Positions 26,746 through 63,628 of a stretch of DNA of 64,000 nt are shown one piece after another. Position 1 is the first letter of the stretch. Each line of letters starts with the position of its first letter. A model generated the notes under the pieces. The model did no database searches, was not told the DNA's origin, and saw only the letters and a program-made list of their open reading frames with translations. The position numbers and the translations under genes are program-made. The stretch spans positions 36,907 to 100,906 of the forward strand of contig CAZSQP010000003.1 of assembly GCA_964609075.1 (NCBI GenBank), given 5' to 3'. The stretch comes from an uncultured Candidatus Saccharibacteria bacterium (GTDB lineage Bacteria > Patescibacteriota > Minisyncoccia > Minisyncoccales > GWA2-38-27).

Positions 26746-27179
26746 TGACAGAAGAAAAAGAACAGAAAGCCCCTTCTCAAAAAGCTCCCCCTAAAGAAAA
26801 AGGCGCTTCAGAGGAAGCAGCTAATGAGATCGAGAGAATAGGAAACTTTATAAGCTTATACGGAATAATAATGTTTTCTATGGCTATAGTTTTAGATCTA
26901 GTAGGCCTCATTCTCTTAGTTCTAAGTTTTTTAGGCATAGGAATCCCTTTGTCCTTTATTCCTGACGTTATTGGTCTTGTCTTTATAGGAGGATTAATGC
27001 TATTGAGTCCTAGTGGAGGAGTAGTAGTTTCCAAAGGAGCAAATAAACTTAGCAAAAAGATAGCTAAAAAAATAGGGAAAAAAATAGGGCTCTCTTTCTT
27101 AGTAGAGCTTGTCCCTTTTGTTGGAGACATAGCCCCCTCCTGGACTGTAGCCGTTTACCTTCACTTAAAAGGCAGTTAA
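26745..27179 (+). CDS. Small polytopic membrane protein of the T4SS-like operon
   Basis: 144 aa with 3-4 predicted TM helices; start overlaps the virB4 stop (TAATG). Confidence 0.4.
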   Translation: MTEEKEQKAPSQKAPPKEKGASEEAANEIERIGNFISLYGIIMFSMAIVLDLVGLILLVLSFLGIGIPLSFIPDVIGLVFIGGLMLLSPSGGVVVSKGANKLSKKIAKKIGKKIGLSFLVELVPFVGDIAPSWTVAVYLHLKGS

Positions 27180-27182
27180 TTT

Positions 27183-30100
27183 ATGGGAAAAAAGAAGCAA
27201 ATAATTTTATTCTGTCTTTTGCTCCTTTTGTTCTCTTTAGGAGCAGATTTTGTTTTAGCTTTAGAAATCAATTATCCTAATTTACCTGATACAGAACCTC
27301 CTCAAGACTTTCTCCAAAGACTTTCTCCAAATGAAGCTCTTCCTTTATATGTTGATTACTTTTTCAAGCTGGCTATCTGGATACTGGGTTTTGTAGCTTT
27401 TGGAGTTATGGTTTATGGAGGAGCTCTCTATTTAATCTCAACAGGAGAACCTGACAAGTTAGTTAAAGCTAGGGAGTTTATTTCTTCCTCTTTTTTTGGC
27501 ATTCTTATCCTTTTAACCTCCTACCTTGTTCTTTCTGTAATAAATCCAGATCTTGTTAATTTAGAAGCTCCAGAAATAGAAGAATTTACAATAGAAAGAG
27601 AACCGGAAGTCCCAGAGCCTAAAATTTTAGCTGCCAACACTTCTATTCACGTAGAGCTGCCTTTCGGAAGATTAATTGAAGGGGACATTTTTGAAACATA
27701 CATTTCAGATCCAAATGCTGTCCAGGGAAGAACGCCGAGATTGAGTAGAATTAAGAGTAATGCTAGTTCCACAATAGATATTGCCTCAAAGCTTTCTCAA
27801 AACAGCCAGCAACTGAGCAGCTTGGCTCAAAGCTGCGACTGTAGCCAGGCAGAACCTGTTTGTCCGAACTGCCAGCCTCAGGGAGCTACTCCTCTCTCTA
27901 ATATTTTGGGTCTTGAAGGAATGGGTGTTTTTTCCCAGATAACAGACAATCTTTCTGATATATTAGGAGAAGGGAATTTGGGTCCAGCTTTAGGTCTTTC
28001 AGAAGCTGTCTCTCGGGGCACAGGAAACATTGGAGAGCTTTCCAGCGTTTTGGATTCAATAGACCAAATTTCAAAAGATTTAAGCTTGTCTCAAAACCTA
28101 CCTCAAGCCTTTGAAATAGGAGGAGAAATAGCTTCTATAACCCAAAACCCCCAAGAACTTACAGGTATGGTCAATTCTATTGAGAATATGAGTCAGATAG
28201 CGGGTCTAGGAAATTTTCAGGAAGCTTTTAATATAGCTACCCAGGCAGCTTTGATAGCGGAGAACCCGGAAAACCTAACTAGTGTTCTGACTTCTGCAGA
28301 AAACATTACAGATATTACAGGAATTACCGGAGACCTTGGAGATACCTATAATATAGGGTATAACATAGCTTCTATAGTAGACAGCCCAAATAGCTATTCT
28401 TCTGTAGTAGGATCTATTGCTAACATCACAGGCATGCTCGACGTTCCGAGAGATCTCTCCGGCGTTTTCAGTACAGCTTATGATATGGCTTCTGTGGCAG
28501 ATAATCCTGCCAATATAGTGCCCCTTTTAAACTCCAACAAGAAAATAGCTAACATCCTAGGAAGCTCTAACAGAATGGAGGATGTTTTTAATGTTGGATA
28601 CAACGTAGCCTTAATAGCAGAGAACCCAGATCAATACTCCACCATAGTTGGAGCCGCCTCTAATATAACGGATATCATGGAAGCCCCAGTAAACCTAGGA
28701 GAGTCTTTCGGTATTGCTTATGATATAGCTTCTATTGCAGAAGAACCATCTAATATCTCTAGAACTTTTTCTTCTTTAGAAAATATAAATAGAACCATTG
28801 ACTCCCCAAATTATCTCAGACCTGCTTTTAAAACAGTTAGAGACTTAGGGTCTATTGTAAGAAACCAGAATAACCTAGAAAGTGTTCTTCTTTCTTCAGA
28901 AGAAATTGCCAGAAGAGTCAATGATTCAGATGATTTATTCAGAGCTTTTGAAAAAGCTCATGAAGCGACTGAAATAGTTGAAGATTACCAAAGATATCCA
29001 GAACTTGTAGAATCTATGGGAAGATTGAGCAGGATATTTGAAAACCCGGCTCATTTAGAGCAGGTTTTAGAAATAGCAAAAGAGAAAGATCTGGCTGAAG
29101 ATCCAGAAGAGCTCGTTGAGGCCTTAAGGGAAGATCCTGATTTCAGACATGTTGTTCCCCAAGAAGATATGGATAAAACTTTAGAGGAAATAGAAAATAT
29201 TGCAGAGAGAACTGACAGATTTGATGAAGTAGAAAGAATAACCAGAGAAGTTGAAAACATTGTACCTAATACAGGTAGTTTAGCTGATGTTTTTGAAAGA
29301 GTAGGAAGCGTTTCCCGTTTGACAGAAAACCCTGATGACTTAAGGAATATCTCTCTTGTATTAGAAGACTTTTCATACTTATCTGAAGACACAGAAGAAG
29401 CAGCTTTTCTTTTAGAAGAGTTCAGAGAAATATCTTTAATTACTCGTGATCTTTCTGACATAGAAAACCTTGAAAACCTAGCTGTAGAACTTAGTTATCT
29501 GGCAGGAGACCATTACGGATTCAACGAAGTTTTAAGGAACTTCGGAGGAGTGGCATCTGTTATCCAGGAGCCAGAAGATTTAAGAAATATACAATATGCC
29601 ATGGAAGATCTTTCTACAATTGTCCCAGAGTTAGAAGGCATGAGCTCTGTCTTAGAGAATTTTCAGGGAATAGGAACCCTTATTCAAGATCCCCAGGATA
29701 TGGGAAACATTAGAATGGCTATGACAGATCTTTCCCATGTTTTTCCTCAAGCAGGAGAGCTTTCTGACTTTTTAGGAGAATATTCTGGTATAGCCTCTTT
29801 AGTTGAAGACCCAACAGACTTTCAGAATATTCAAGCAGCTGCAGACAACCTTTCTGAAATTCTACCTCAGACAGGAAATCTTTCACAATATTTTGATAAT
29901 CTAGAAGGAATAGCTTCTTACGTTCAAGATCCAACTGATTTTCAGGGCCTTCAAGGAGCTCTTAGCGACTTATCTCAAATTCTGCCCGAGGCAGGTCAGC
30001 TTTCTGATTTTTTGGGGCAATACGAAAATTTAGCCTCGGTTATCCAGGACCCTACAGATCTAGCCAATATTCAAGGAGGATTAGAGGATCTTTCTCAGGT

Positions 30101-31493
30101 CATACCTCAAGCAGGAGAGCTTTCTGACTTTTTGGGAGAATATGCCGGAATAGCCAGTATTATTAATGATCCTCTTAACACAACGAATATAATGAATGCT
30201 GCCTCAAATCTTTCTCAAATAGCCCCTCAGCTTTCACCTGTTATGGGAGAGCTTAAAAGCTTAGGAGGGCTTTTTGGAGGACCTCAGGGAATTACCGGAG
30301 CTTTTTCTTCCGGTTCTTGCAACTGTGATACCTGTAAAAGCGTAAGAGGAGAAATAGAAAAGCTTCAGTTAGAAAACGTAGACAGCTTAATACCTTCTTT
30401 AAAAACAGAACAACAAAAGACGATAAGAGAAAGAGAAGACCTGGAAGAACAAATGGACAGATTAGAGAGGGCAGCAAAGTTTATCAATGCTTGCCCTTAC
30501 ACCCTAAAAGAAAGTTTAAGCCGCTTTTATCCAACTAAAGAATCTTACATCTCTAATAGAAGTGGAATTGTAAGGCAATTTCCTTTTTGGGACGACATCA
30601 TAATCCCTTATCTCACAGAACAAAACGAAACAGTTTCAGAATGGGCTTCTTTTCTTTGTATTATTGGAGGAAACATTCTTTCTGTAGCTAACCCAGTAGA
30701 ACATATGGGAGAAGCTTCCATCACAGGAGAATCTAGAACCTGTTTTAACGAAATACCTGTAGGAGACATCATAGAGAGAACTTTAAGAACAGCGAACCTC
30801 ATGACTCAGAAAATGGACCAAATTGTGTCTTTGGACAGAGAATTAATCTCGGAGATAGACAAGCTTCATGTTTTAATAAGCAACTGTACCTCTCAAGCCC
30901 CTCCCTGTTTTTCTGTCTGTATATGCGTTCCCTGTGAACATGGAGGAGGATGCTGTCCTTGCCTTAAATGGTGCGAAGGATCTGCCTGTCCATACGGGGA
31001 GATAAAAGATCAGGCTAAAAAGATTCAGCAGATTATAAATAGGAAAAACGGCTTGAGCTATACTATCAACAACCCGAACCCAGCTTCTCAACAAGGAATG
31101 CAAAATCAAGTCAAAGAGGGTATAGGATTAAACCCTATTATCGACACTATTGTTCCCGCTATCTTGCAAGACCTCCAGACCGAAGTAAGACATCCTATGA
31201 TGGCCTGCGAACCTCAGCAACACGAAGGAAACCTTATCCCCTGCAACAGAGCTGTAGGAAGAACTACTCCTGAAGGATTAATTCAAGGATGCGCTCAAGA
31301 TGAAGAGTTCTTTAACCCCTGCATTGAAAAGTGCTATCTTGAAGAAACCCAAGAAGAATATACCAACTGCCTCGAAAGCTGCCTTCTAATTCAAAAAGGG
31401 GTTTATTCTAATTTAGAGGGATCCGATGAAATTCCTAATTATCATCACGAATTAAACTTTTTCTGTTGCCCCGCAGAAACCTCGCCTAGATAA
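27183..31493 (+). CDS. Giant (1436-aa) secreted protein: N-terminal two-helix pilin-like (TrbC/VirB2-like) domain, a CxC motif, about 25 degenerate ~40-aa helical repeats, and a Cys-rich C-terminal domain
   Basis: Signal peptide; LEINYP; TM-loop(TGEPDK)-TM-INPDL module shared with 31496, 32698 and 51365. Repeats of the type DPxDxxNIQxAxxDLSxIxPQxGxLSDFLGEYxGIASxV. C-terminal Cys clusters CICVPCEHGGGCCPCLKWCEGSACP. Confidence 0.55.
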   Translation: MGKKKQIILFCLLLLLFSLGADFVLALEINYPNLPDTEPPQDFLQRLSPNEALPLYVDYFFKLAIWILGFVAFGVMVYGGALYLISTGEPDKLVKAREFISSSFFGILILLTSYLVLSVINPDLVNLEAPEIEEFTIEREPEVPEPKILAANTSIHVELPFGRLIEGDIFETYISDPNAVQGRTPRLSRIKSNASSTIDIASKLSQNSQQLSSLAQSCDCSQAEPVCPNCQPQGATPLSNILGLEGMGVFSQITDNLSDILGEGNLGPALGLSEAVSRGTGNIGELSSVLDSIDQISKDLSLSQNLPQAFEIGGEIASITQNPQELTGMVNSIENMSQIAGLGNFQEAFNIATQAALIAENPENLTSVLTSAENITDITGITGDLGDTYNIGYNIASIVDSPNSYSSVVGSIANITGMLDVPRDLSGVFSTAYDMASVADNPANIVPLLNSNKKIANILGSSNRMEDVFNVGYNVALIAENPDQYSTIVGAASNITDIMEAPVNLGESFGIAYDIASIAEEPSNISRTFSSLENINRTIDSPNYLRPAFKTVRDLGSIVRNQNNLESVLLSSEEIARRVNDSDDLFRAFEKAHEATEIVEDYQRYPELVESMGRLSRIFENPAHLEQVLEIAKEKDLAEDPEELVEALREDPDFRHVVPQEDMDKTLEEIENIAERTDRFDEVERITREVENIVPNTGSLADVFERVGSVSRLTENPDDLRNISLVLEDFSYLSEDTEEAAFLLEEFREISLITRDLSDIENLENLAVELSYLAGDHYGFNEVLRNFGGVASVIQEPEDLRNIQYAMEDLSTIVPELEGMSSVLENFQGIGTLIQDPQDMGNIRMAMTDLSHVFPQAGELSDFLGEYSGIASLVEDPTDFQNIQAAADNLSEILPQTGNLSQYFDNLEGIASYVQDPTDFQGLQGALSDLSQILPEAGQLSDFLGQYENLASVIQDPTDLANIQGGLEDLSQVIPQAGELSDFLGEYAGIASIINDPLNTTNIMNAASNLSQIAPQLSPVMGELKSLGGLFGGPQGITGAFSSGSCNCDTCKSVRGEIEKLQLENVDSLIPSLKTEQQKTIREREDLEEQMDRLERAAKFINACPYTLKESLSRFYPTKESYISNRSGIVRQFPFWDDIIIPYLTEQNETVSEWASFLCIIGGNILSVANPVEHMGEASITGESRTCFNEIPVGDIIERTLRTANLMTQKMDQIVSLDRELISEIDKLHVLISNCTSQAPPCFSVCICVPCEHGGGCCPCLKWCEGSACPYGEIKDQAKKIQQIINRKNGLSYTINNPNPASQQGMQNQVKEGIGLNPIIDTIVPAILQDLQTEVRHPMMACEPQQHEGNLIPCNRAVGRTTPEGLIQGCAQDEEFFNPCIEKCYLEETQEEYTNCLESCLLIQKGVYSNLEGSDEIPNYHHELNFFCCPAETSPR

Positions 31494-54095: not shown

Positions 54096-54169
54096 CGGGC
54101 TGTGGCGCAGCGGCTTAGCGCGCAGCGTTCGGGACGCTGAGGTCGTGGGTTCAAATCCCACCAGCCCGA
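54096..54169 (+). tRNA. tRNA-Pro (anticodon CGG)
   Basis: Manual fold: acceptor CGGGCTG/CAGCCCG, D-stem GCGC/GCGC, anticodon stem CAGCG/CGCTG with loop TT-CGG-GA, T-arm GTGGG-TTCAAAT-CCCAC. Confidence 0.8.
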
Positions 54170-54177
54170 AAGTATTT

Positions 54178-54612
54178 ATGGAACAAAAAGAATCCACTAA
54201 ATTAAGAAGAGTAGAAAGCAGAATAAACAGGCATCTTTTTTTAATTTGTGCTATGGTTACGGTTTTAGTTATGATTTTCTTCTCACTGGAATTTTTTACC
54301 AGAGGTTTTTTTAAGCCAGCCAAAATAGAGCTTTTCTATCTCGGAGTATTAGTGATTTATTCGATTCATAAAGAATTATTGAGATGGCTGGGAAAAAGAA
54401 AAATAGAGCGCCAGGGAGAATATTTTGTCTATAGCTGGATAATTTTAACATCAGTTCTTTATGTAGTTAATTTTCTAGCCAACGGATATTTTTCTTATTC
54501 TGTCTCAGGAAAAGAGCTTGCTGTTTTGAGTAATATGTCTATCCTTACTGTAGAGGTTTTGGCTATCTTTATTTTCACTAGAGCTTTAAAGATAGTCAAA
54601 GCTACCCTTTAG
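54178..54612 (+). CDS. Small membrane protein (4 predicted TM helices)
   Basis: ORF in the track; the internal Met at 54178 is preferred so the CDS does not overlap tRNA-Pro. Confidence 0.4.
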   Translation: MEQKESTKLRRVESRINRHLFLICAMVTVLVMIFFSLEFFTRGFFKPAKIELFYLGVLVIYSIHKELLRWLGKRKIERQGEYFVYSWIILTSVLYVVNFLANGYFSYSVSGKELAVLSNMSILTVEVLAIFIFTRALKIVKATL

Positions 54613-54682
54613 GGCCTATAGTTTAATGGCAGAATACAGCTTTCGCATAGCTGAGATGGTGGTTCGACTCCACCTGGGTCCA
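54612..54682 (+). tRNA. tRNA-Ala (anticodon CGC), G3:U70 present, short or irregular D-arm
   Basis: Manual fold: acceptor GGGCCTA/TGGGTCC with a G3:T70 wobble pair, anticodon stem CAGCT/AGCTG with loop TT-CGC-AT, T-arm GGTGG-TTCGACT-CCACC. Confidence 0.6.
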
Positions 54683-54720
54683 CACTTTTCTTTTTAAAGA
54701 TATGTTATAGAATAAATAGT

Positions 54721-55518: not shown

Positions 55519-57255
55519 ATGAAAGAAACTCTTCCTGAAATATTTTACAAGACATCAGAGAAGTTTCCAGACAAAACAGCTTTTCGGTATAAAGAAGAGG
55601 GTATTTATTATTCTCTAAGCTATAAAGAGGCAAAAAAGATAATAGAGAGCTTTGCTATAGGTCTTCAGTCTTTAGGAATTAAAAAAGGAGATAAAATAGC
55701 TTTGTTTTCTGAAAACAGACCGGAATGGGCTTTTACAGACTTGGGAGCTCAAATAACAGGAGCTGTTTTAGTCCCTCTTCACACTACTCTTAACCCAAGG
55801 GCTATAGGAAACCTTATTAATCATTGTGAAGCTAAGATTCTAGTGGTTTCTGGCTCTGAACTTTTGAATAAGGTTTTGATAATCCAGCAGGAACTTAAAA
55901 ATATAGAGAAAATCATTTTTATAGAAGAATTGGAACAGGAGATTAAAAATATATGTAAGAAAGATATTATTGGATGGGAAGAGTTTTTAAAAGAATCAGA
56001 AGGTAAAGAATTAAAGAAGGTGGATCTAAATTTAGAAGAGATTTGTACTATCATATATACCTCAGGGACAATGGGAGAGCCAAAAGGAGTTATGCTTTCT
56101 CATAATAATTTTATCTCTGATGCTAGGGCTGTAACAGAAGTTATACCTATTTCAGAAAGAGATACCTTCTTGTCTTTTCTTCCTCTATCTCATGTTTTAG
56201 AAAGGCTGGCAGGGTACTACACCGCTATAATGCACGGCTCTACTATAGCTTATGCTGAAAGCATTAATACTTTGGCTGATAATTTAAAAGAGATAAAACC
56301 CACTATTTTAATCTCAGTTCCCAGGGTTTTTGAGAAATTTTATGATAAGGTTTGGGATAAAATAGAAGACTCTTCAAAGATGAGAAGAGAAATGTTTTTA
56401 TGGGCCTTAAAACAAAATGGCAAAAGTATTAAGAATAAAATAGCAGACCAATTGGTTTTCTCCAAAATAAGAAAACAACTTGGGGGAAGATTAAGGTTTG
56501 CAGTTTCTGGAGGAGCTTCTTTGAACAAAAGAATAGCCAAGTTTTTTCAAAAAGAAGTAGGGATTGATATTTTAGAGGGTTACGGTTTAACAGAAACCTC
56601 TCCTGTGGTTTCTGTAAATAGAGTGGAAGATGTTAGGTTGGGAACTGTAGGTAGGGCCCTTCCTGGAGTAGAAGTAAAGATTTCTCCAGAGAAGGAAATA
56701 TTAGTAAGAGGTCCTAATGTGATGAAAGGTTATTACAGAAATGAAGAATTGACAGATGAAGTCATAGACAAAGAAGGATGGTTTTATACGGGTGACTTGG
56801 GCTTTATAGACCAAGATGGCTTTTTGACTGTAATAGGAAGAAAGAAAGAACTGATTGTGACTTCTGGAGGGAAGAATGTCTGGCCAGAAGAGGTGGAAAA
56901 TGAGATTAACCATGATGCTTTTGTTTCCCAGTCTATGGTTTTGGGACATAAAAGGAAGTTTGTTTCAGCTCTAATAGTTCCTGACTGGCAGGAAGTGAAA
57001 GAGTATTTATTGGATCATAATCTTTCTGTTAAAGATCCTGATTTAATGATAAAAGATGAAAATATTGTTTCCCTTTTTGAAAAAAGAATAAAAAAGATAA
57101 ACGAACATCTTTCCCGTCCAGAACAGGTTAAAAAGTTTAAACTGCTGGATGAAGAGTTCAGTCAGAAAAAAGAAGAGCTTACTCCTACTTTAAAATTAAG
57201 AAGGCATATTATAGAGAAATACTACAGAAAAGAAATAGAAGAAATGTATTCTTAA
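55519..57255 (+). CDS. Long-chain acyl-CoA synthetase (AMP-dependent ligase)
   Basis: AMP-binding motif TSGTMGEPKGV and other adenylation-domain motifs (YGLTET, GDLG). Confidence 0.8.
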   Translation: MKETLPEIFYKTSEKFPDKTAFRYKEEGIYYSLSYKEAKKIIESFAIGLQSLGIKKGDKIALFSENRPEWAFTDLGAQITGAVLVPLHTTLNPRAIGNLINHCEAKILVVSGSELLNKVLIIQQELKNIEKIIFIEELEQEIKNICKKDIIGWEEFLKESEGKELKKVDLNLEEICTIIYTSGTMGEPKGVMLSHNNFISDARAVTEVIPISERDTFLSFLPLSHVLERLAGYYTAIMHGSTIAYAESINTLADNLKEIKPTILISVPRVFEKFYDKVWDKIEDSSKMRREMFLWALKQNGKSIKNKIADQLVFSKIRKQLGGRLRFAVSGGASLNKRIAKFFQKEVGIDILEGYGLTETSPVVSVNRVEDVRLGTVGRALPGVEVKISPEKEILVRGPNVMKGYYRNEELTDEVIDKEGWFYTGDLGFIDQDGFLTVIGRKKELIVTSGGKNVWPEEVENEINHDAFVSQSMVLGHKRKFVSALIVPDWQEVKEYLLDHNLSVKDPDLMIKDENIVSLFEKRIKKINEHLSRPEQVKKFKLLDEEFSQKKEELTPTLKLRRHIIEKYYRKEIEEMYS

Positions 57256-57919
57256 TCTTGTTTTTGTGGTATAATTTACATATATGAAATTGCCTGATTT
57301 TTTCAAGCCCTTATTGTGATCTTACAACTTTTCTCAGATTGATAAAGAAGAAAACAAAAAGACCATTATTGTAAACACTATAAATTACGGTGATTTAAAA
57401 CACTGGAAATGGATAACTGAAAATTACGGGAAAAAGGAGGTTGTAAAGGTGCTATCTAGTGTTCCTCTTTCTGAATTAAGGCCGGGGGCTAGAAAGCTTG
57501 CCTCTGTTCTTTTCGGTATTAAAGAATTTAATTATGAAAGAAGAAGCATTAAGTAAAAAGGGAAAGGATCTTTTTCCTCCTCTCGAAAATTTTGTGTTTT
57601 ATAAAGATATTCCTCTTTTGAGCACAAGAGAAATAGCAGCTTCAAAAGAATATACTTTATGAAGAAGAGGGTCCTATCCCGTATTCTTTGCTAATAAACA
57701 ACTCTTTCTTTATTTTTTTACAGAAAAAGACCCGTCGATAGAGTTTAATGCCATAGTAAGACAGGCAGGCCCGCACAGCTGAGAATTTTTAGATTGGGTT
57801 ATCTTTTTCATATACTTTGAGTATAGTATGATATTGTGTTAGTAAAAATATTTCCTTATTCCAATACTAATTTATTTGACTTATTAAATATAAGGTTATA
57901 TAATTTTCTTATTAAGATT

Positions 57920-59026
57920 ATGGCTAGATCTAAACTTACAATTCCATGTCATTGGGATAAATCTGTTTTGAATAAAATTTTAGATAAACAGAAATTTTCA
58001 AAGAGCGATATTAAAGTTTCAGAGATATACGGAACTTTAGCTAAAGGCCCTGTGCTACATGGTAGAGCTTGGAATAGTATTCCGAATATAACAAAGAAAG
58101 AAGCAGTAGCTTTTAGAAGATATGTTAAATCACTAGGACTGAAATTTACCTATTTATTAAATGCGCCCTACAGGATTGGAGATAGTAAAGATCTATCAAG
58201 GGTTAAGGATTATTTGAAGTGGATTGTAGAGGAGTTTGAAGCGGATAGCCTAATGGTTACTTCTCATGGATTGATGAATTTTATAAGAGAAATTTATCCT
58301 TTTATTCCCCTGTATATTTCAACTATTGCTGGCGTGTTAAATTTTAATCAGTTGGAAAATTTTTTAGATATTAATCCTTCAAGAGTGGTAGTTCATCACG
58401 ATGCGAACAGGAATTTTAAAGACTTAACTAATCTTGTTAAAAAAGCTCAAGAAAGGAATGTTGAAGTTGAAGTAATGGCGACAGAAAGTTGTTTAAGAAG
58501 ATGTCCTCATAGAGAAGCTCACTATAATCACTTGGGTAGCGGTCGTACTGATGTACCTTTTCACACTATCTGCAACAAGAAAAAATTAATGTATCCAAAA
58601 GAATTTCTTAAGGCAAATTTTATAAGGCCTGAAGACCTTCATTTTTATGAAAAAATAGGAATTAATTTTTTTAAGATTACCGGAAGGTCAAAACCGTCAT
58701 CTTGGCTGCCCAAAGCAGTAAAAGCATACTTAGAGAGGAGTTATGAAGGTAACCTTATGCGCCTTTTAGGTACGGATCCTTCTTTAAAAGTCGAGACTTG
58801 GATCTTTATTAACAACAAATCACTAGATGGATTTTTGGATAGTTTCCCTAGGGATAAAAATGAGAAAAAAGAAGATTTTTATTGTGATGAATGGATTTCG
58901 AAAATGTATACAGAAGGAAGGTTTAAAGTAGAAGATGGAACTAAATATGAATTGAATTCTTCTCGGATGCTCCGTTTTTGTCAGCCTGGTTATCGTGCAT
59001 CATCTATTATAACTCCAGAAAAATAA
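57920..59026 (+). CDS. Peptidase-U32-family protein (Fe-S-dependent hydroxylase family, e.g. UbiU/RlhA-like)
   Basis: Architecture matches U32: LKFTYLLNAP..., ...SLMVTSHGLMNFIRE...PLYIST..., VEVEVMATESCLRRCPHREAHYNHLG Cys motif. Start chosen at the internal Met (MARSKL). Confidence 0.5.
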   Translation: MARSKLTIPCHWDKSVLNKILDKQKFSKSDIKVSEIYGTLAKGPVLHGRAWNSIPNITKKEAVAFRRYVKSLGLKFTYLLNAPYRIGDSKDLSRVKDYLKWIVEEFEADSLMVTSHGLMNFIREIYPFIPLYISTIAGVLNFNQLENFLDINPSRVVVHHDANRNFKDLTNLVKKAQERNVEVEVMATESCLRRCPHREAHYNHLGSGRTDVPFHTICNKKKLMYPKEFLKANFIRPEDLHFYEKIGINFFKITGRSKPSSWLPKAVKAYLERSYEGNLMRLLGTDPSLKVETWIFINNKSLDGFLDSFPRDKNEKKEDFYCDEWISKMYTEGRFKVEDGTKYELNSSRMLRFCQPGYRASSIITPEK

Positions 59027-59112
59027 CAATTTAATTTACAATATTAATTTACAGGAACTAATTTTATATTAGTATGAGTATGAAATAGTTCTTTAAAAAG
59101 AAAGAAACAAGT

Positions 59113-59688
59113 ATGATTTTCTTAATTGGTCCTCACGGTGCGGGAAAAACTACTATTGCTGAGATAATTACCTGTTACAACTTTATTTATTTCGATTTGG
59201 GTAAAATTTTAAGGGATTATCACAAAAGGAAGAAACCAGAAATTGACTTTAGGTCTTGGTGTATGGAAAATGAACGGATTCACGGCCCCCTTTTTACTGA
59301 CAAGATAATTATCAGAGAAATCAAAAGAAGATATAGAGAGATGATAAATAAGGTTTGCCAGCCCCAAGACTTGGTTATTGTGGGAAGTCGTTCTTTCCAA
59401 GGGATAAAATATATTATTAACGAGATGTCCTCTTTTAATGAGCATGAAAATGTAATTATTTGTATTGAGGCTCCCTTTGATGTTTTGAAAGAGCGATATT
59501 GTGCTCGGGAAAAGAGAAAGCTTAGTGATCAGGAATTTCAAGCTATTTTGAACAAAGACAAGCAAATGGGACTGTTAGAAGCGGAAGATCGAGCAGATTT
59601 ACGAATTTCGAACGTAGTTTCTATGCAGGAATTAAAAGAAAGAGTAAAAGATTTAATTGATGGGGAGCTGGGATATTCTATAATGTGA
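59113..59688 (+). CDS. P-loop NTPase / small-molecule kinase-like protein
   Basis: Walker A LIGPHGAGKTTIAEI; 191 aa. Confidence 0.5.
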   Translation: MIFLIGPHGAGKTTIAEIITCYNFIYFDLGKILRDYHKRKKPEIDFRSWCMENERIHGPLFTDKIIIREIKRRYREMINKVCQPQDLVIVGSRSFQGIKYIINEMSSFNEHENVIICIEAPFDVLKERYCAREKRKLSDQEFQAILNKDKQMGLLEAEDRADLRISNVVSMQELKERVKDLIDGELGYSIM

Positions 59689-59694
59689 CATTTT

Positions 59695-60747
59695 ATGGCT
59701 GATTATTTGAAGAAAGAAAATTTTTTTCGAAAGAGATCATCCTTCCAGGATTATTCATTGTCGAATAATAATATTGACAAAGAATATGCTGAGATAATCG
59801 GTGGGTTGTCTTGTGATCAGATGACAAGACTTATTAATCAGTATCCTGACTACGAATACTCTCAACTGCTCAAGATAATAAGAAAAACTTTTAAAGTATC
59901 GAAAGTTGTTTTGGGCTGTGGCTCGGAGGATTTAATTATAAGAATTAATGCTATCTTAAAAAAGAGGGGAGGAATAGGAATTTTCCTCCCTAATTTTTAT
60001 AGGATAATGGAAACTGCGGGAAAATATAAAAAGATTTATATGCAATATGATCTAGATTCTGAGTTCTTAGATTATATAAATGATTCAAGGGTGATAATTA
60101 ACCAAATTAAAAGCTTGTGGATTTCTAATCCTAATCCGATGATTGGAAAAGTAAGTAAGAGGGGTGATATTATCAGATTGATTAAAAATAACAAAAAGGT
60201 TCTATTTATTGTTGATGAATCAGCTATTGATTTTCTTGATAAGCCTTACGATTATTCCGTAATAGATGTCACTCGAGAGGTAGATAATTTAATAGTGGTA
60301 AGATCTTTTTCGAAATTGTACGGGATAGCTGGCCTAAGAGCAGCTTTTGCAACAGGTCGAGCAGAAGTCCTGGAAAAGATCGAAAAAGTTGGTCTCACCT
60401 TTCCTATTAATGGCGTGGCAGAGTATTTTGTGAGAAAACTTTTGAAAAATGAATCAGCAATCAGGAGGATAAAAAAGAAAATCAAAAACAATAAATTATT
60501 ACTGGAGAAAATTTTGTCAGAGAATAGAAATATTGTCTTAAGTAAATCAGTGACTAATTGCTTATTTTTTGGCCACAAAGAGAAAGATATGTTTCCTGAA
60601 TTGTTGAATCTAGGAATTAATGCATTAGATTTGAATAATCAAGATGGTCTTAAAGAAAGAAACTTCGTTAGAGTAACAGTTCACAGTTCAGGGTCTTTAT
60701 TTAAAAATTTGCACAAAAAATTATCAAGACTTGTTAAAATAATGTGA
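59695..60747 (+). CDS. PLP-dependent class I/II aminotransferase-fold enzyme (HisC / threonine-phosphate decarboxylase CobD-like)
   Basis: PLP-lysine motif VVRSFSKLYGIAGLRAAF. Confidence 0.6.
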   Translation: MADYLKKENFFRKRSSFQDYSLSNNNIDKEYAEIIGGLSCDQMTRLINQYPDYEYSQLLKIIRKTFKVSKVVLGCGSEDLIIRINAILKKRGGIGIFLPNFYRIMETAGKYKKIYMQYDLDSEFLDYINDSRVIINQIKSLWISNPNPMIGKVSKRGDIIRLIKNNKKVLFIVDESAIDFLDKPYDYSVIDVTREVDNLIVVRSFSKLYGIAGLRAAFATGRAEVLEKIEKVGLTFPINGVAEYFVRKLLKNESAIRRIKKKIKNNKLLLEKILSENRNIVLSKSVTNCLFFGHKEKDMFPELLNLGINALDLNNQDGLKERNFVRVTVHSSGSLFKNLHKKLSRLVKIM

Positions 60748-60756
60748 TCTTTTTCA

Positions 60757-61836
60757 ATGAAAAAGGATTTTAAGCCATATAAAATAGGAACAGTCTTCAA
60801 TTCTCTTGGAGTAAATTATTCTGGGTTGATCCCGGCCTATAAGGGTGTGGAAGTTAATTTTCCTAGTCGCTTGAATGCGATGGCTCTAGATCCTAGCAAG
60901 ATAACTAGTAATAATAATTTAGTTTATACACCTGGTGAAATTATTTTCGTTGTTAAAATATACAGCAGGGTTACTATTGAAATTTCGAACAAAAAAGGAG
61001 AGATAAGAATATCTTCGTCTTCTCCTCGTCATTCACTTATAAATCATGTAGTTTTCTTGATGCGTAAGGCTTTAGCTATTAATGATGGTTTTTATATTAG
61101 TGTAGAAAAGGAGGATGAAATAAAACATTGTGGTTTGGGTTCTAGTAGTAATTTAATTGCTGCTGTTGCAGTTGCTATTAATGAGCTTTATGGAAATCCT
61201 ATAGACTTAGAAACTTTAGCAAAATATGTAGCCCAGAATCATGGGGAAGAAATAGAAGGAGAAGATAATTATATAATGCCCGTTCAATCTATAGGTGGGT
61301 CTGCGATTGGTGGTTTTTTCGATGGAGGGATGAAGGTTATAACCGGTGAGACGTGTTTAATTAAAAGTATGGATATCTCAAGGAAATATAAGGTTGTGTT
61401 GGGAATACCTAAAGATTTTCAGGAAAAGGATGCTAGAGAACTACTAGATATGGAAATTAATAACTTCGATAAGTTTTTTGATACCGGCCTGAAATTTAAA
61501 AATAAGATTGCCTATAATGTTTTACATAAGCTTCTTCCGGCAATGACTACAGGTGACTTGGGAACTATTGGGGATATTATATTTGATTATCGTTTCAATA
61601 TGGGGAGTATTGAGAATTGCTCTTTTGTATATTCTAAATTGCCAGAAGTTACCGGTGAACTTGTTCCTTTGAAAAAGAAAAAGATTGCGGAAATTTTAGC
61701 TATTTCTTCGGTTGGGCCTGGTATATTTTCTATAACAAAAGAACCTCGTTTTTGTGAAGATGTTTTTAAAGCGAATAATTTAGAAACAAAAGTTGTTGAG
61801 TTAGAAAATAAGAAATATACGGTGAAAAGGAGATAA
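60757..61836 (+). CDS. GHMP-family kinase
   Basis: GHMP motif CGLGSSSNLIAAVAVAINELYG. Confidence 0.6.
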   Translation: MKKDFKPYKIGTVFNSLGVNYSGLIPAYKGVEVNFPSRLNAMALDPSKITSNNNLVYTPGEIIFVVKIYSRVTIEISNKKGEIRISSSSPRHSLINHVVFLMRKALAINDGFYISVEKEDEIKHCGLGSSSNLIAAVAVAINELYGNPIDLETLAKYVAQNHGEEIEGEDNYIMPVQSIGGSAIGGFFDGGMKVITGETCLIKSMDISRKYKVVLGIPKDFQEKDARELLDMEINNFDKFFDTGLKFKNKIAYNVLHKLLPAMTTGDLGTIGDIIFDYRFNMGSIENCSFVYSKLPEVTGELVPLKKKKIAEILAISSVGPGIFSITKEPRFCEDVFKANNLETKVVELENKKYTVKRR

Positions 61837-61839
61837 AAA

Positions 61840-62490
61840 ATGGATTATAGCGAAAGAATTAAAAAATTTTGGGATAAAGAAGTAAAAAACTTTTCTAATG
61901 ATGATCCTTCAGAATATTTATTAAATTTTTTTTCACAAATAAAAAAGAGAAAAAATAGAAAAATATTGGACTTAGGATGTGGTGCTGGCAGAAACACTTT
62001 AATGCTCTGTAAGTTGGGTTTTAAAGTTTACGGTTGTGATTTGAATAGAGAAATGGTTTTAGAAACACGAAGGAAATTACCTGTACATTTTAAAAATAAT
62101 ATTATTATCTGTGATATAGTTTCGCTTCCCTATTATGATAATTTTTTTGATTTTGTGCTCTCAAACGGTATTTTTCATAATGCTGTTTCTTTTCAGGATT
62201 TTGAGAAAGCTATATCAGAAACTACAAGAATTTTAAAAGTAAGAGGTAGTTTAGTAGTTAATGTGTTTATAATGGATCCGACTCTTAAGGGAAACTTAAA
62301 AGTTATTCCTCAAAGTAAAAAATTATATCTTACCCAAGAAAAATTACCTATGGTTTTACTTTCTTTAGAAGAATTGATCAGCGTTTTCAAAAAGAAAAAA
62401 CTCTATCTTCAGAGCTACGGAACAAGAAAAGTAGAGATAGCTACGGGGGAGAGAAAAGTTTTTAAAGGAGTTTTTAAAAAGAGGCTATAA
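61840..62490 (+). CDS. Class I SAM-dependent methyltransferase
   Basis: Motif I ILDLGCGAGRNT. Confidence 0.7.
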   Translation: MDYSERIKKFWDKEVKNFSNDDPSEYLLNFFSQIKKRKNRKILDLGCGAGRNTLMLCKLGFKVYGCDLNREMVLETRRKLPVHFKNNIIICDIVSLPYYDNFFDFVLSNGIFHNAVSFQDFEKAISETTRILKVRGSLVVNVFIMDPTLKGNLKVIPQSKKLYLTQEKLPMVLLSLEELISVFKKKKLYLQSYGTRKVEIATGERKVFKGVFKKRL

Positions 62491-62506: not shown

Positions 62507-63064
62507 TTAATCTTTTCTTTTTTTAGTAAGGTGTTTGGCAATTTTGAGATAGTTTTTTCCCCAGATATCTAATCTTTCCTCTTCGGGATATTCTGTTAAG
62601 GTTCGAGATTCGTTTTGGAATCTTATTATACCATTCCATCCTCCTCGAGGATCAGGAACTCTTTCTTCTCTTTCAAAAGATATAGGGACTTTGTATTTAT
62701 ATTCTAAGGTAGTACCATTTGGTTTAGCGTAAACTGTAGCTATTTCGAAATAGCCACTTCTATCCTTTTCGTTATTAAGGATTCTTAGGAGTTTTTTAGC
62801 GGGCAGTCTTTTCTCAATAAAACTAGTATAAGGGCCTGGAATACCTAAGGTATTTATAAACAAACTGTGGTCCTCTCTAATAATGGGAGAGTTTAGATCT
62901 TTTGCTGCTTTAAGGGCGGTAAATCTAGCAATTTCCAGACTACTATCTGCTTGAATTTCAGGATAATCTTTTCTTGCTTGTTTTATTTCTATACCAAACT
63001 TTTTGAATGATTTTACAGCAGCTTTTAATTTCCCTGGGTTTTTTGTTAATATATTTACGATCAT
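62507..63064 (-). CDS. Ham1/RdgB-like non-canonical purine NTP pyrophosphatase
   Basis: VNILTKNPGKLKAA... and ...EDHSLFINTLGIPGPYTSF align with the RdgB motifs (ATGN.GK..E; DDSGL.V..LGG.PG.YSAR). Confidence 0.55.
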   Translation of the reverse strand: MIVNILTKNPGKLKAAVKSFKKFGIEIKQARKDYPEIQADSSLEIARFTALKAAKDLNSPIIREDHSLFINTLGIPGPYTSFIEKRLPAKKLLRILNNEKDRSGYFEIATVYAKPNGTTLEYKYKVPISFEREERVPDPRGGWNGIIRFQNESRTLTEYPEEERLDIWGKNYLKIAKHLTKKRKD

Positions 63065-63160: not shown

Positions 63161-63628
63161 GTGATGGATAATCAAAAAATAAGAGAAGCCTGTATTAAGG
63201 AAAAGGAAGAGAAACTGAGGAAGTTAGAAGAATCTTTTGAGGCTACAAAACAGTATGCAGCTGATGCTCCCGGGAGCTCACAATCTCATTCTGATACCTC
63301 AAAATTCCAGCATAGCAACCTAGCCCTTGGAACAGAGATGAGAATTCAGGAAGCAAAAGAAGAATTAAGAATGCTTCAAGCTCTTCCCGGAAGCTCTAAA
63401 GAGAAAGTTTTTGTTGGAGCTTGTTTTGTGCTTAGAGATCTTAATAGCGGTCAGGCTGATAATTACTTTCTTATTCCGAAGGGAGGCGGAGATTTCCTTG
63501 AAGTTGACGGAGAAGAGATAATGGTCATTTCCGAAGAGTCTCCCATAGCTGAAGCAGTTATGGGAAAAAGAAAAGGAGAGGTCATCTCCTTCAGGGAAAA
63601 GAAGCTTATGATTCAGGAGATTCAATAG
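63161..63628 (+). CDS. GreA/GreB-family transcription elongation factor-like protein
   Basis: N-terminal coiled coil plus a C-terminal FKBP-like domain motif (ISEESPIAEAVMGKRKGEVISF). Confidence 0.55.
   Translation: MMDNQKIREACIKEKEEKLRKLEESFEATKQYAADAPGSSQSHSDTSKFQHSNLALGTEMRIQEAKEELRMLQALPGSSKEKVFVGACFVLRDLNSGQADNYFLIPKGGGDFLEVDGEEIMVISEESPIAEAVMGKRKGEVISFREKKLMIQEIQ

Follow-up and report, generated by a model that had tools for sequence, protein, structure and literature searches.

The question raised by this locus is what a row of genes encoding a U32-family protein, a P-loop kinase, a PLP enzyme, a GHMP-fold protein and a SAM methyltransferase could make together. An ORF check of the window, i.e. 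the whole 64,000-nt stretch of DNA analysed, revealed five co-directional, tightly packed ORFs on the + strand between 57920 and 62490, separated by 86, 6, 9 and 3 nt in the order from U32 to methyltransferase (Table 1). The superfamily of all five products was confirmed above the Pfam gathering score: Peptidase_U32 (PF01136, 38.6 bits, cut-off 22.4), AAA_17 (38.6 bits) and AAA_18 for the P-loop kinase (ADK scored below cut-off), Aminotran_1_2 (73 bits) for the PLP enzyme, GHMP_kinases_N (42.2 bits) and Methyltransf_11 (68.8 bits). Curated family-specific cut-offs (NCBIfam-type models) were reached by none of the five, and no specific family was reached for the class I SAM methyltransferase.

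The initial annotation had described a five-gene cassette behind a 580-bp ORF-free leader. The five ORFs are indeed present, unidirectional and close, but the unit extends past 62490, as the convergent Ham1 gene is co-conserved and the GreA-like gene often so. The window holds one form of a mobile cassette that comprises six to seven genes. The leader was not borne out: most of it is occupied by a decayed DUF6922 gene, broken through a TGG to TGA change. In a near-identical contig (L001; 3 of 7910 bases differ from those of the window, at 57316, 57319 and 57349), this gene is intact and encodes 90 aa with a precomputed PF21956 match. TGA acts as a regular stop in the window and ends 14 of 48 long ORFs. 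The L001 gene call and the N-termini of homologues agree on ATG 57920 as the true U32 start, not GTG 57836. The best promoter-like match, from an upstream region in which such sites are not more numerous than the shuffled expectation, ends 16 nt before this ATG, a position that would imply a very short 5′ UTR. An Rfam scan of the upstream region found no elements. The stretch before U32 is not a regulatory leader.

Table 1. Features of the cassette and its surroundings, in window coordinates.
Feature	Position	Strand	Product	Remarks
DUF6922 small gene, inactivated	57284-57556	+		In-frame TGA at codon 12 (57317-57319); outside cassette
Best sigma-70-like promoter match, TTGACT-17-TATAAT	57876-57904	+		11/12 consensus positions; consensus match only
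U32	57920-59026	+	368 aa	
P-loop kinase	59113-59688	+	191 aa	
Class I/II PLP enzyme	59695-60747	+	350 aa	
GHMP-fold protein	60757-61836	+	359 aa	
SAM methyltransferase	61840-62490	+	216 aa	
Ham1/ITPase-family protein, divergent	62507-63064	-		Convergent with methyltransferase, 16 nt away; sixth cassette member
GreA/GreB-family protein	63161-63628	+		Often adjoins cassette; membership uncertain

The arrangement of the cassette genes is far beyond chance; they are found side by side again in 27 genome loci and 80 metagenome loci. The approximately 100 related loci reveal a unit larger than the window's five genes. In its core, a GHMP-fold enzyme is accompanied by an NMP-kinase-like P-loop kinase, by between one and three SAM methyltransferases, by a divergent Ham1 protein and by either a U32 protein or a PrnB-type haem oxygenase, and these cluster independently of gene order. 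Carriers include Patescibacteria classes, DPANN archaea, CPR2 and Bacillota, among them some gut Firmicutes; the cultured Firmicutes Eubacterium ramulus ATCC 29099 and Lachnotalea glycerini DSM 28816 have such a cluster. Gene presence per locus was counted in 32 well-flanked loci; U32-type loci number 20 and PrnB-type loci 9. No description of the cassette was found in the literature searched; it is an undescribed gene unit common to ultra-small bacteria, ultra-small archaea and some gut Firmicutes. The idea of a pathway for a modified nucleoside- or nucleotide-type small molecule, assignable to no known route, holds up, and the cassette is co-conserved across relatives.

The AF2 model of the U32 protein (pLDDT 91) matched the U32 protein Mk0906 (5d88) best among solved structures. 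Homologue alignment revealed conserved cysteines (C10 and C191-X3-C195-X22-C218) in this U32-family TIM-barrel protein, a putative Fe-S protein, although their spacing differs from the CX6CX15CX3/4C of characterised U32 families. The cassette U32 profile found no characterised U32 protein among solved sequences, and the subfamily is distinct. In many relatives the same place is filled by a PrnB-like, haem- and O2-dependent oxygenase; the two are nearly mutually exclusive (20 vs. 9 loci) and occur together only in locus L077. The PrnB-like protein matches solved PrnB with E=3e-48. It retains the proximal His and, like PrnB, the tryptophan-binding residues for the amine and carboxylate of the amino acid, equivalent to Ser319, Gly210 and Tyr104 named for FbPrnB (PMC11791213). 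U32-type and PrnB-type loci are interspersed on the GHMP tree; 67 GHMP positions are at least 90% conserved in both types, with 0 type-specific fixed differences. Since no such difference exists, the GHMP substrate is probably the same in both. The PrnB-like replacement and the uniform GHMP enzyme lend strong comparative support to the early assignment of the U32 protein as an O2-independent hydroxylase, and we propose that it acts as such an oxygenase/hydroxylase on an aromatic precursor. In UbiU/V, which are U32 enzymes, the oxygen comes from prephenate, and phenylpyruvate is the proposed co-product (PMC10990095).

A PLP enzyme or an Asp/Glu-type racemase, never both together, is found in 18 of 20 U32-type loci and in 0 of 9 PrnB-type loci. 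Because of this distribution, the PLP enzyme would be an accessory of the U32 step and not a partner of the GHMP enzyme. It is missing from about half of the cassettes, including every PrnB-type one, while the GHMP gene is constant. It is a divergent member of the HisC/CobD clade to which it was initially assigned, scoring about equally and far below the NCBIfam cut-offs for both HisC (128 vs. 276.55 bits) and CobD (120.6 vs. 290.55 bits). The lysine of SFSK is kept, and the Tyr of DEAY is replaced by S, A, T or G in 33/33 cassette homologues; this Tyr is present in all five of the best-aligned solved relatives, including the one Thr-P decarboxylase. In locus L011 the enzyme is fused to DAHP synthase. 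Bona fide DAHP synthases (279-316 bits, cut-off 268) belong to some U32 modules and, like the MfnA/aromatic-type decarboxylases of some loci and the prephenate dependence of UbiU/V, hint at aromatic chemistry. Speaking against this, no other shikimate genes lie beside these synthases in the loci inspected and, to our knowledge, Patescibacteria are not expected to make prephenate. The role of the PLP enzyme is uncertain: it may remove a keto-acid co-product or carry out chemistry at the C-alpha of an amino-acid intermediate. The roles of PLP enzyme and racemase fit no one proven mechanism.

The GHMP protein is the anchor of the cassette. Its best, near full-length NCBIfam match was BetaRFA-P synthase in 23 of 23 members tested, with CPR, Firmicute and archaeal versions agreeing on this. 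Scores of the window protein were far below the cut-offs of these models (48 vs. 328 and 33 vs. 113.5 bits), and the homoserine kinase model scored almost equally (44 bits). Eight of ten distant relatives score best for the beta-RFAP synthase family, at up to 96 bits, above the cassette members. The motifs PxR[IL][HN]xxxxD, HxG[LMF]GS[ST], N[HF]xEE and SS[VL]GP are common to family and distant relatives, whereas the GGGG loop of the beta-RFAP-like relatives is lacking. The His two residues before GLGS takes the position of His-99 of ForT, a residue that binds the pyrophosphate of PRPP (PMC8183095). For the AF2 model (pLDDT 88), the top solved folds include ForT (TM 0.63-0.66), Foldseek ranking homoserine kinase, mevalonate kinase and ForT about equal; the family profile matched homoserine kinases and not ForT among solved sequences. 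By its family and motif matches, the protein is placed in the beta-RFAP-synthase/ForT-like branch and not with the amino-acid kinases. Beta-RFAP-synthase-like proteins make aryl C-glycosides from PRPP, and we propose that the cassette enzyme likewise depends on PRPP and transfers ribosyl-5-phosphate from it to an aryl or heteroaryl carboxylate. PrnB-like::GHMP fusions (L100, P0244, P0242) and fusions carrying a methyltransferase at the GHMP C-terminus (11 loci and further database proteins) fix the order oxygenase - GHMP - methyltransferase; the methyltransferase acts next to the GHMP step.

Other members point to nucleotides. The P-loop kinase, found in 23 of 32 well-flanked loci and absent from Firmicute versions, shows a Walker A GxHGxGKT and '(E/D)xGxI(L/V)R' across 14 cassette homologues. 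We propose that this adenylate/NMP-kinase-type enzyme phosphorylates the phosphate monoester of the product, from an NMP-like to an NDP-like form. Ham1, a divergent nucleoside-triphosphate pyrophosphatase by family, matches Ham1p_like (56.3 bits) and stays below the XTP/dITP diphosphatase equivalog (103 vs. cut-off 203). It adjoins the cassette or lies in the operon, in many gene orders, in 24 of 32 well-flanked loci, and has conserved motifs of its own (REDHSLF, W(N/G)xNY) across 59 copies. Its slot can be taken by a NUDIX protein (L054), an HD/YfbR-like protein (L116) or, in Firmicutes, a HAD phosphatase. In 18 loci, an RHH DNA-binding domain is joined to a DNPH1/Rcl-like domain (E=1.4e-14) whose catalytic Glu has become an invariant Gln; the protein looks like a nucleotide-sensing regulator.

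Tentatively, and with a confidence just short of even, we suggest that the cassette makes a methylated, non-canonical ribonucleotide, with PRPP and an aromatic amino acid (probably tryptophan) as starting materials. The amino acid would first be oxidised. Tryptophan is the likeliest substrate, since the alternative enzyme is closely homologous to PrnB and preserves the tryptophan-binding residues of the latter. In the window this step would be O2-independent and catalysed by the U32 Fe-S enzyme, by analogy with prephenate-dependent UbiU/V, TrhP and RlhA, helped by the divergent PLP enzyme (elsewhere by the racemase-family enzyme, sometimes plus DAHP synthase); in other genomes a single haem/O2 enzyme of the PrnB family would take over this step. 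The oxidation may plausibly yield an aryl or heteroaryl carboxylate, e.g. 4-(2-aminophenyl)pyrrole-2-carboxylate formed by a PrnB-type ring rearrangement. That the intermediate retains its carboxylate is a conjecture, because known PrnB releases CO2 itself. The GHMP enzyme may then couple the acid to PRPP with release of PPi and CO2, giving a C-ribonucleoside 5′-phosphate or possibly an N-riboside. This would be methylated by the SAM methyltransferase, often GHMP-fused, and converted to the diphosphate by the P-loop kinase, and divergent Ham1 would regenerate the monophosphate by hydrolysing the tri- or diphosphate. If so, Ham1 would determine the size of the pool or prevent the analogue from entering the cell's own nucleic acids, and the product might act as cofactor, signal or antimetabolite.

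An unlikely alternative makes the GHMP enzyme a true kinase. The oxygenase would hydroxylate an aromatic substrate (amino acid or amine), whose new hydroxyl the GHMP protein would O-phosphorylate with ATP. The methyltransferase would N- or O-methylate, the PLP enzyme or the group II decarboxylase of some loci would decarboxylate, and the P-loop kinase would add a second phosphate. The GHMP protein has an intact motif II, and its best matches among solved sequences and folds are homoserine and mevalonate kinases. The fusion order parallels psilocybin biosynthesis, in which PsiH hydroxylase, PsiK kinase and PsiM methyltransferase act in turn; aromatic-type decarboxylases occur in 8 of 32 well-flanked loci, and CobD-clade enzymes act on O-phospho amino acids. 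However, this scheme leaves Ham1, NUDIX, the HD nucleotidase, the DNPH1-like sensor and the NMP-kinase-like motif unexplained. In sequence space the GHMP family is linked to beta-RFAP synthases, whose His and Arg signature it carries, and not to kinases, and all PrnB-type cassettes lack the PLP enzyme.

We give still less weight to an aryl-ribotide route as in methanopterin, in which DAHP synthase, U32 and PLP enzyme would supply a shikimate-derived hydroxy- or aminobenzoate for coupling to PRPP by the GHMP enzyme, the product forming an arm of a pterin-like or other cofactor and tryptophan not being the precursor. The beta-RFAP synthase match, the DAHP synthases inside U32 modules (one fused to the PLP enzyme) and the hydroxylation of aromatic rings by U32 enzymes (PMC10990095) are consistent with it. 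Yet only 4 of the 20 U32-type loci contain DAHP synthase, pterin-branch genes (MptH/DHPS-like and others) are absent from all loci inspected, and the PrnB-like alternative keeps its amine- and carboxylate-binding residues beside a GHMP site identical in both types.

RNA modification is very improbable. Here U32 would hydroxylate a tRNA or rRNA base like TrhP or RlhA and the methyltransferase would methylate it, the remaining genes being neighbours or support; TrhP is the sole specific NCBIfam match of U32 (21 vs. cut-off 534 bits), and Bacillus has U32-plus-methyltransferase operons for xo5U. Against it, U32 is of a distinct subfamily and is replaced by an amino-acid-binding haem enzyme, itself GHMP-fused, the methyltransferase is fused to GHMP and not to U32, and free-nucleotide enzymes sit in the operon. 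Hardly credible is the pair put forward in the initial annotation, an L-threonine kinase (GHMP) and a CobD-like decarboxylase (PLP enzyme) yielding aminopropanol phosphate, even if widened to a serine kinase and ethanolamine phosphate with methylation to follow: the CobD score, Thr-P decarboxylases among the solved relatives of the PLP enzyme and phosphoethanolamine N-methyltransferases among the weak methyltransferase relatives speak for it, but HisC scores as well, the DEAY Tyr is lost, the PLP enzyme is dispensable, tracks U32 and can be replaced by a racemase, the GHMP protein groups with beta-RFAP-synthase-like proteins, and no cobamide genes occur in the loci inspected or among the window genes scanned.

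As to the neighbouring GreA/GreB-family protein (PF01272, 33 bits), it has an unusual tip, 'SHSDT', and adjoins the cassette in 13 of 32 well-flanked loci, one of them on an archaeal contig (L003) that carries S6e and eIF2-gamma genes.

Mapping of the window proteins onto 27 genome loci and 80 metagenome loci, the latter seeded on the GHMP-fold protein, revealed a recurrent cassette. Its constant parts are the GHMP-fold protein, a U32 Fe-S protein or a PrnB-family protein, a P-loop kinase, one to three SAM methyltransferases and a Ham1-family pyrophosphatase; gene order and strand arrangement vary widely between loci. Presence was counted in the 32 distinct loci whose GHMP gene has 4.5 kb or more of sequence on each side. 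Twenty of these contain U32 only and nine the PrnB-like protein only, with a PrnB::GHMP fusion additionally in locus L100; the P-loop kinase is present in 23/32, Ham1 in 24/32 and a separate methyltransferase gene in 27/32 (fused methyltransferase domains left out of the count). In other loci Ham1 is an internal gene of the operon; it separates U32 from GHMP in L049 and methyltransferase from PrnB in L102, and it follows the kinase in L012. GHMP::methyltransferase fusions were found in 11 loci and several database proteins, and PrnB-like::GHMP fusions in L100 and in the proteins P0244 and P0242; the order of the parts derived from these fusions is therefore oxygenase - GHMP - methyltransferase. 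One further fusion, in L011, joins DAHP synthase to the PLP enzyme.

In the window the five plus-strand ORFs from U32 to the methyltransferase are separated by 86, 6, 9 and 3 nt. All five products exceed the Pfam gathering score of their own superfamily, and none reaches a curated NCBIfam family cut-off. The U32 start codon chosen here agrees with the gene call on a near-identical contig and with the N-termini of homologues; the first-start ORF begins at GTG 57836.

Features of the window, with positions and, where assigned, strand
Feature	Position	Strand	Remark
TraG-like P-loop ATPase, then 1436-aa ORF	24949-31493		ORF without Pfam match
tRNA-Pro(CGG) and tRNA-Ala(CGC)	54096-54683		flank the 155-aa ORF
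155-aa ORF	54145-54612		first-start codon overlaps tRNA-Pro 3′ end
FadD-like AMP-forming ligase	55519-57255		directly upstream of cassette
DUF6922 gene	57284-57556		TGA at codon 12 (57317-57319)
Promoter-like site TTGACT-17-TATAAT	57876-57904		ends 16 nt 5′ of U32 ATG
U32 protein	57920-59026	+	368 aa; ATG 57920
P-loop kinase	59113-59688	+
Class I/II PLP enzyme	59695-60747	+
GC-rich hairpin (9 pairs)	59966-59991		T-runs on both strands; inside PLP-enzyme coding region
GHMP-fold protein	60757-61836	+
SAM methyltransferase	61840-62490	+
Ham1	62507-63064		convergent with methyltransferase
GreA/GreB-family protein	63161-63628		tip APxxxxSHSDT(S/T)K

The U32 subfamily ranges over many classes of Patescibacteria, Pacearchaeota, Woesearchaeota, other archaea, CPR2 and Bacillota, the last including the cultured Eubacterium ramulus ATCC 29099 and Lachnotalea glycerini DSM 28816. 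The Firmicute version is without P-loop kinase and Ham1 and adds a group II decarboxylase, an HAD phosphatase, two radical-SAM enzymes, a CatA-like acetyltransferase, a DAHP synthase and MetK. Lachnotalea glycerini and E. ramulus ATCC 29099 carry an extended version of 10-11 genes (L002 8758-18201; L004/L020 8779-20172), in which the decarboxylase is MfnA-like and the radical-SAM pair consists of one MiaB-like and one B12-dependent enzyme. MatE or MFS transporters adjoin this version, which has the appearance of a natural-product cluster and may serve to make a nucleoside. Several CPR loci have large serine recombinases at the flanks of the cassette (L117 11143-12450, L118 220-1782, L006 11480-13162), and in one gut Firmicute contig the cluster is truncated by a recombinase. 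The flanking recombinases and the patchy distribution over CPR, DPANN and Firmicutes thus suggest that the cassette travels on integrative elements. The protein P0242 (883 aa; L116 6001-8652) is a triple fusion, HEPN_Toprim_N::PrnB-like::GHMP, encoded on a plasmid-like contig that also bears a TrwC relaxase and ParA.

The initial annotation placed a 580-bp ORF-free leader in front of the U32 gene. We found this interval to be occupied by a DUF6922 gene broken by an in-frame TGA. Relative to the window, the near-identical contig L001 has 3 changes in 7910 bases (57316, 57319 and 57349), all within 34 bp of the DUF6922 gene; it has TGG at codon 12, and its 90-aa gene is intact. As TGA terminates 14/48 long ORFs in the window and is a regular stop there, the interruption is a strain-level nonsense change and not recoding, and an alternative genetic code was rejected on these grounds and on the TGG of L001. 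The promoter-like site listed in the table is the best one upstream of U32. An Rfam scan of window 54-64 kb at E≤1 returned nothing apart from tRNAs, and six Firmicute loci gave no match at gathering score; a riboswitch or leader RNA was dropped for want of such support. Given the broken DUF6922 gene, the promoter-like site close to the ATG and the negative Rfam scans, no long regulatory leader precedes the cassette.

The window U32 protein matches Peptidase U32 (PF01136) with 38.6 bits (cut-off 22.4) over residues 121-298 of the 396-aa ORF. Its AF2 model (pLDDT 91, pTM 0.90) has a TIM-barrel fold, the best solved match being the U32 protein Mk0906 (5d88; E=6e-9, TM 0.69 on target). The sole match among NCBIfam equivalogs was TrhP at 21.2 bits against a cut-off of 534, and the subfamily profile found nothing relevant among solved sequences. 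The proteins form a distinct subfamily of about 370 aa, with closer members 40-63% identical to the window protein. They have the TIM barrel of UbiU/UbiV, TrhP and RlhA and, like these, conserved cysteines, but as a separate subfamily they carry four to five of them (C10, C191, C195, C218, C322) with the spacing CXn-C-X3-C-X22-C, as compared with the published [4Fe-4S] motif CX6CX15CX3/4C of U32 hydroxylases and CXnCX12CX3C of UbiV (PMC6747719).

The PrnB-like protein that takes the place of U32 elsewhere is a full-length homologue of solved PrnB (FbPrnB, 9DFG, E=3e-48; P. fluorescens PrnB, 1e-43). In the alignment it keeps the proximal His and FbPrnB residues Gly210, Ser319 and Tyr104, with Ala for Gly211; Gly210, Ser319 and Tyr104 (and Gly211) are the contacts of the tryptophan carboxylate and indole (PMC11791213). 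Unlike PrnB (monodechloroaminopyrrolnitrin synthase) of the pyrrolnitrin pathway, the cassette protein is not accompanied by prnA, prnC or prnD, and it is fused to or lies beside the GHMP-fold enzyme. None is encoded in the window, where U32 and the PLP enzyme occupy its place. In the GHMP tree U32-type and PrnB-type cassettes are intermixed, and a comparison of 35 U32-type with 21 PrnB-type GHMP proteins gave 67 positions at which both types share one residue with a conservation of ≥90%, and no type-specific fixed position. The intermixed tree and the lack of type-specific residues argue that the two modules supply the same substrate to the GHMP enzyme. One locus, L077, has PrnB, GHMP and methyltransferase together with a divergent module of U32, DAHP synthase and PLP enzyme.

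Pairs of O2-independent and O2-dependent enzymes are known, UbiU/V with UbiI/H/F and TrhP with TrhO. The U32 side of such pairs has been described (PMC10990095, PMC6599085), and the cassette appears to parallel them, as its U32 is replaced across genomes by a haem, O2-dependent PrnB-like enzyme for what would be the same step. By this analogy the initial proposal that U32 acts as an O2-independent hydroxylase is strengthened. The cassette differs from the known cases in that the O2-dependent counterpart belongs to the haem PrnB/TDO superfamily, not to flavin or rhodanese enzymes, and in that U32 would presumably act on a free small molecule, where the known enzymes act on RNA or a polyprenyl phenol. 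For UbiU/V, prephenate is the oxygen donor and phenylpyruvate the proposed co-product (PMC10990095). Association of U32 with DAHP synthase and a Phe/His-type aminotransferase-like protein would fit such a donor and co-product, and together with the PrnB-like displacement it points indirectly to a putative prephenate-dependent, O2-independent hydroxylation.

A PLP enzyme or an Asp/Glu-type racemase (TIGR00035, 166 bits vs. cut-off 93) is present in 18/20 U32-type and 0/9 PrnB-type loci, and the two never occur together; the PLP enzyme is an accessory of U32. It scores 73 bits for PF00155, above the cut-off, and 128.2 and 120.6 bits for HisC (TIGR01141) and CobD (TIGR01140), below the respective cut-offs of 276.55 and 290.55; the Firmicute orthologue likewise falls below both. 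The family keeps the Lys (SFSK) and the Asp of DEAY, and the DEAY Tyr is changed to S/A/T/G in 33/33 cassette homologues vs. retention in 5/5 best-aligned solved relatives (ArAT, three HisC, one Thr-P decarboxylase). A genuine type I-beta DAHP synthase (TIGR01361, 279-316 bits vs. cut-off 268) is part of some U32 modules, and no other shikimate genes were found beside it. The accessory may be read in two ways. U32 could take its oxygen from prephenate, with DAHP synthase feeding the donor and the PLP enzyme clearing the keto acid, which leaves the racemase unexplained. Alternatively, the PLP enzyme or racemase could labilise the C-alpha hydrogen of an amino-acid intermediate and so complete what PrnB performs alone; this C-alpha chemistry accounts for the mutual exclusivity of the two, but not for the DAHP synthase fusion. 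On both readings, the apparent partnership with GHMP behind the PduX/CobD idea is spurious.

The GHMP-fold protein scores 42.2 bits for PF00288 (cut-off 22.3), has RHCGLGSSS as motif II and is modelled by AF2 with a GHMP fold (pLDDT 88). Foldseek returned HSK, MVK and ForT as top solved matches at E ~1e-15, the best TM-scores (0.63-0.66) being those of ForT. Beta-RFAP synthase was the best and longest NCBIfam match in 23/23 members tested, as it was for the Firmicute and distant archaeal versions; the scores are 48.4 bits for NF040726 (cut-off 328) and 33.2 for TIGR00144 (cut-off 113.5), with the homoserine kinase model at 44 bits (cut-off 194). Mean column identity over 23 homologues is 62%. 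The family is compact, with 304 cluster representatives at E≤0.001 in an exhaustive profile search of 1.84 billion proteins. Among the most distant relatives tested, 8/10 score best for beta-RFAP synthase, with scores of as much as 96 and 90 bits across the full model, near the 113.5 subfamily cut-off. Window protein and distant relatives have in common the motifs PxR[IL][HN]xxxxD, HxG[LMF]GS[ST], N[HF]xEE and SS[VL]GP. R38 and H124 are invariant and align with the same Arg and His of the beta-RFAP-like relatives; they correspond to ForT Arg-19 and His-99 by motif position (the His two residues before GLGS), not by alignment with the ForT sequence. GHMP-superfamily kinases have Gly or Ser at the position of His-99. 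In ForT, Arg-19 and His-99 bind the PRPP pyrophosphate, His-99 via its side chain (PMC8183095). Counted against a placement among C-glycoside synthases are the low scores, the nearly equal homoserine kinase match and the GGGG loop of the beta-RFAP-like relatives, which is missing here and gives way to a different insert. On balance, these sequence features suggest that the GHMP protein probably catalyses a PRPP-dependent ribosyl transfer. It resembles beta-RFAP/RHP synthase (MptG, methanopterin) and ForT/PyfQ (formycin, pyrazofurin) in its fold, in the near full-length curated match, in the shared motifs with the His before GLGS and in having nucleotide-handling enzymes around it. It differs from them in scoring far under the family cut-offs, in the replaced loop, in its partners (U32 or PrnB, Ham1, an NMP-kinase-like kinase) and in its hosts (CPR/DPANN and Lachnospiraceae-type Firmicutes, as against methanogens or actinomycetes).

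The P-loop kinase is similar to adenylate and UMP/CMP kinases and has a Walker A and the motif (E/D)xGxI(L/V)R at the place of the NMP-binding motif; its scores are 21.3 for Pfam ADK (cut-off 26.8) and 30.7 for NCBIfam adk (cut-off 168). Ham1 has the fold and Pfam membership of the house-cleaning ITPases (PF01725, 56.3 bits vs. cut-off 22.5), but reaches 103.4 for the XTP/dITP diphosphatase equivalog NF011396, below the cut-off of 203. The cassette proteins form a subfamily of their own with conserved REDHSLF and W(N/G)xNY, where canonical ITPases have DDSGL and SHR. The Ham1 slot is taken by a NUDIX hydrolase in L054, by an HD/YfbR-like nucleotidase that follows the triple fusion in L116, and by an HAD phosphatase in Firmicutes. 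Directly 5′ of the operon or within it, 18 loci of both types encode a protein (about 185 aa) in which a DNPH1/Rcl-like nucleotide-binding domain (E=1.4e-14) is joined to a C-terminal RHH domain (L014 8761-9327, L057 2227-2784, L099 6277-6852, L118 4878-5459 and 14 other loci); the gene is not present in the window. In contrast to DNPH1/Rcl nucleotide N-hydrolases, its domain has an invariant Gln for the catalytic Glu and is fused to the DNA-binding RHH. The protein is likely a nucleotide-sensing repressor, and its architecture appears undescribed. Kinase, Ham1 and DNPH1-like parts fit a pathway with a nucleoside 5′-phosphate as intermediate or product.

We therefore favour, tentatively and at slightly less than even probability, a route from an aromatic amino acid and PRPP to an unusual methylated nucleotide. 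The amino acid would be oxidised by U32 and its accessory in the window, and by the PrnB-like enzyme elsewhere. The resulting aryl or heteroaryl acid would be ribosylated with PRPP by the GHMP enzyme in a ForT-type reaction, that is, decarboxylative C-C bond formation with an aromatic carboxylate. Methylation and phosphorylation would follow, with Ham1 capping higher phosphates. A PrnB-type rearrangement of tryptophan without decarboxylation would give 4-(2-aminophenyl)pyrrole-2-carboxylate, a heteroaromatic carboxylate of the kind that ForT-type enzymes substitute with ribose 5-phosphate; this detail is chemically attractive and unproven.

The main rival is a psilocybin-like scheme of hydroxylase, kinase and methyltransferase, but a pure kinase model has difficulty accommodating the nucleotide-handling parts. 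A classical benzoate-ribotide route is less likely than this scheme, and RNA modification less likely again. The lowest likelihood attaches to the first suggestion for this locus, an L-threonine kinase with a CobD-like decarboxylase. As in PduX and CobD, a GHMP-fold protein stands beside a HisC/CobD-clade PLP enzyme, but the pair is not co-conserved, since the PLP enzyme tracks U32 and not GHMP; both proteins are below the family cut-offs, the PLP enzyme is without the DEAY tyrosine, and no threonine-kinase NCBIfam model matched the GHMP protein at E≤0.01. Several other candidates were discarded. A methanofuran-like pathway (MfnA decarboxylase, MfnC aminotransferase, adenylate-kinase-like MfnE) leaves U32, PrnB, GHMP and Ham1 unplaced, and analogues of MfnB/D/F are absent. 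For a CoA route through pantoate kinase and dephospho-CoA kinase we found just a weak DPCK match of the P-loop kinase (E=1e-4), and for cobamide nucleotide-loop or lower-ligand genes (CobU/CobT/BzaC-like) no supporting matches. De novo formation of a heteroaromatic acid from DAHP by DAHP synthase, PLP enzyme and U32 is unlikely because the GHMP proteins of the two cassette types are without type-specific differences. An anti-phage defence system was dropped, as PADLOC did not recognise the cassette and returned generic methyltransferase and P-loop matches only.

No description of the cassette was found in the literature searched. Its parts are known enzyme families; new, as far as checked, are the gene combination, the U32/PrnB displacement, the dedicated Ham1 subfamily and the nucleotide-sensing regulator. 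Patescibacteria and DPANN archaea have very small genomes and almost no biosynthesis, so a cassette of six or seven genes that is strongly conserved and shared by horizontal transfer likely matters for their biology. A fuller, rather unlikely scheme would have ultra-small symbionts (Patescibacteria and DPANN archaea) and some gut Firmicutes make a hitherto unknown natural nucleotide, a methylated C-ribonucleotide with a tryptophan-derived aminophenyl-pyrrole or related heteroaryl base. It would begin with interchangeable aerobic PrnB-type haem or anaerobic U32 Fe-S prephenate-type steps, be served by a dedicated kinase, a sanitising pyrophosphatase, a nucleotide-sensing repressor and possibly a GreA-like factor, and yield a new cofactor or antimetabolite used in episymbiosis. 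If this is correct, the U32 protein would be the first hydroxylase of its family to act on a free small molecule and would lend independent genomic support to prephenate as oxygen donor and phenylpyruvate as co-product. For work on this uncharacterised U32 subfamily the cassette is a practical starting point: it has an O2-dependent counterpart in nature, its substrate is likely a small molecule, and some of its carriers are in culture. It brings the proposed prephenate chemistry of U32 enzymes within reach of in vitro tests. It also suggests that a new natural C-nucleotide or C-nucleoside may exist; compounds of this class are of proven interest in pharmacology.

The GreA/GreB-family protein downstream of Ham1 has an unusual conserved tip, where that of canonical GreA is acidic. 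Proteins with this SHSDT tip are encoded in the window and in L003 (1-508), L075, L082, L085 and L016, and the type stands beside the cassette on archaeal contigs bearing S6e and eIF2-gamma genes; a bacterial RNA-polymerase factor is unexpected there. The AMP-forming ligase upstream was not counted in the cassette because its recurrence is too sparse: AMP-binding genes lie within 10 kb of the cassette in a CPR2 locus and a distant archaeal locus (L025 19824-21005; L027 13424-14533) and within 8 kb in 0/32 well-flanked loci. The hairpin in the PLP-enzyme gene scores as a bidirectional terminator-like site and is probably fortuitous. The window surroundings look like a Patescibacteria (CPR) genome, with a GC content of 33-42%, nearest homologues from Patescibacteria, and genes for a type IV pilus ATPase, PNPase, PBP1, a TraG-like ATPase and a giant PKD-domain protein. 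The TraG-like ATPase and the 1436-aa ORF after it may be part of a Patescibacteria type IV secretion region. The true start of the 155-aa ORF between the two tRNA genes probably lies further downstream.
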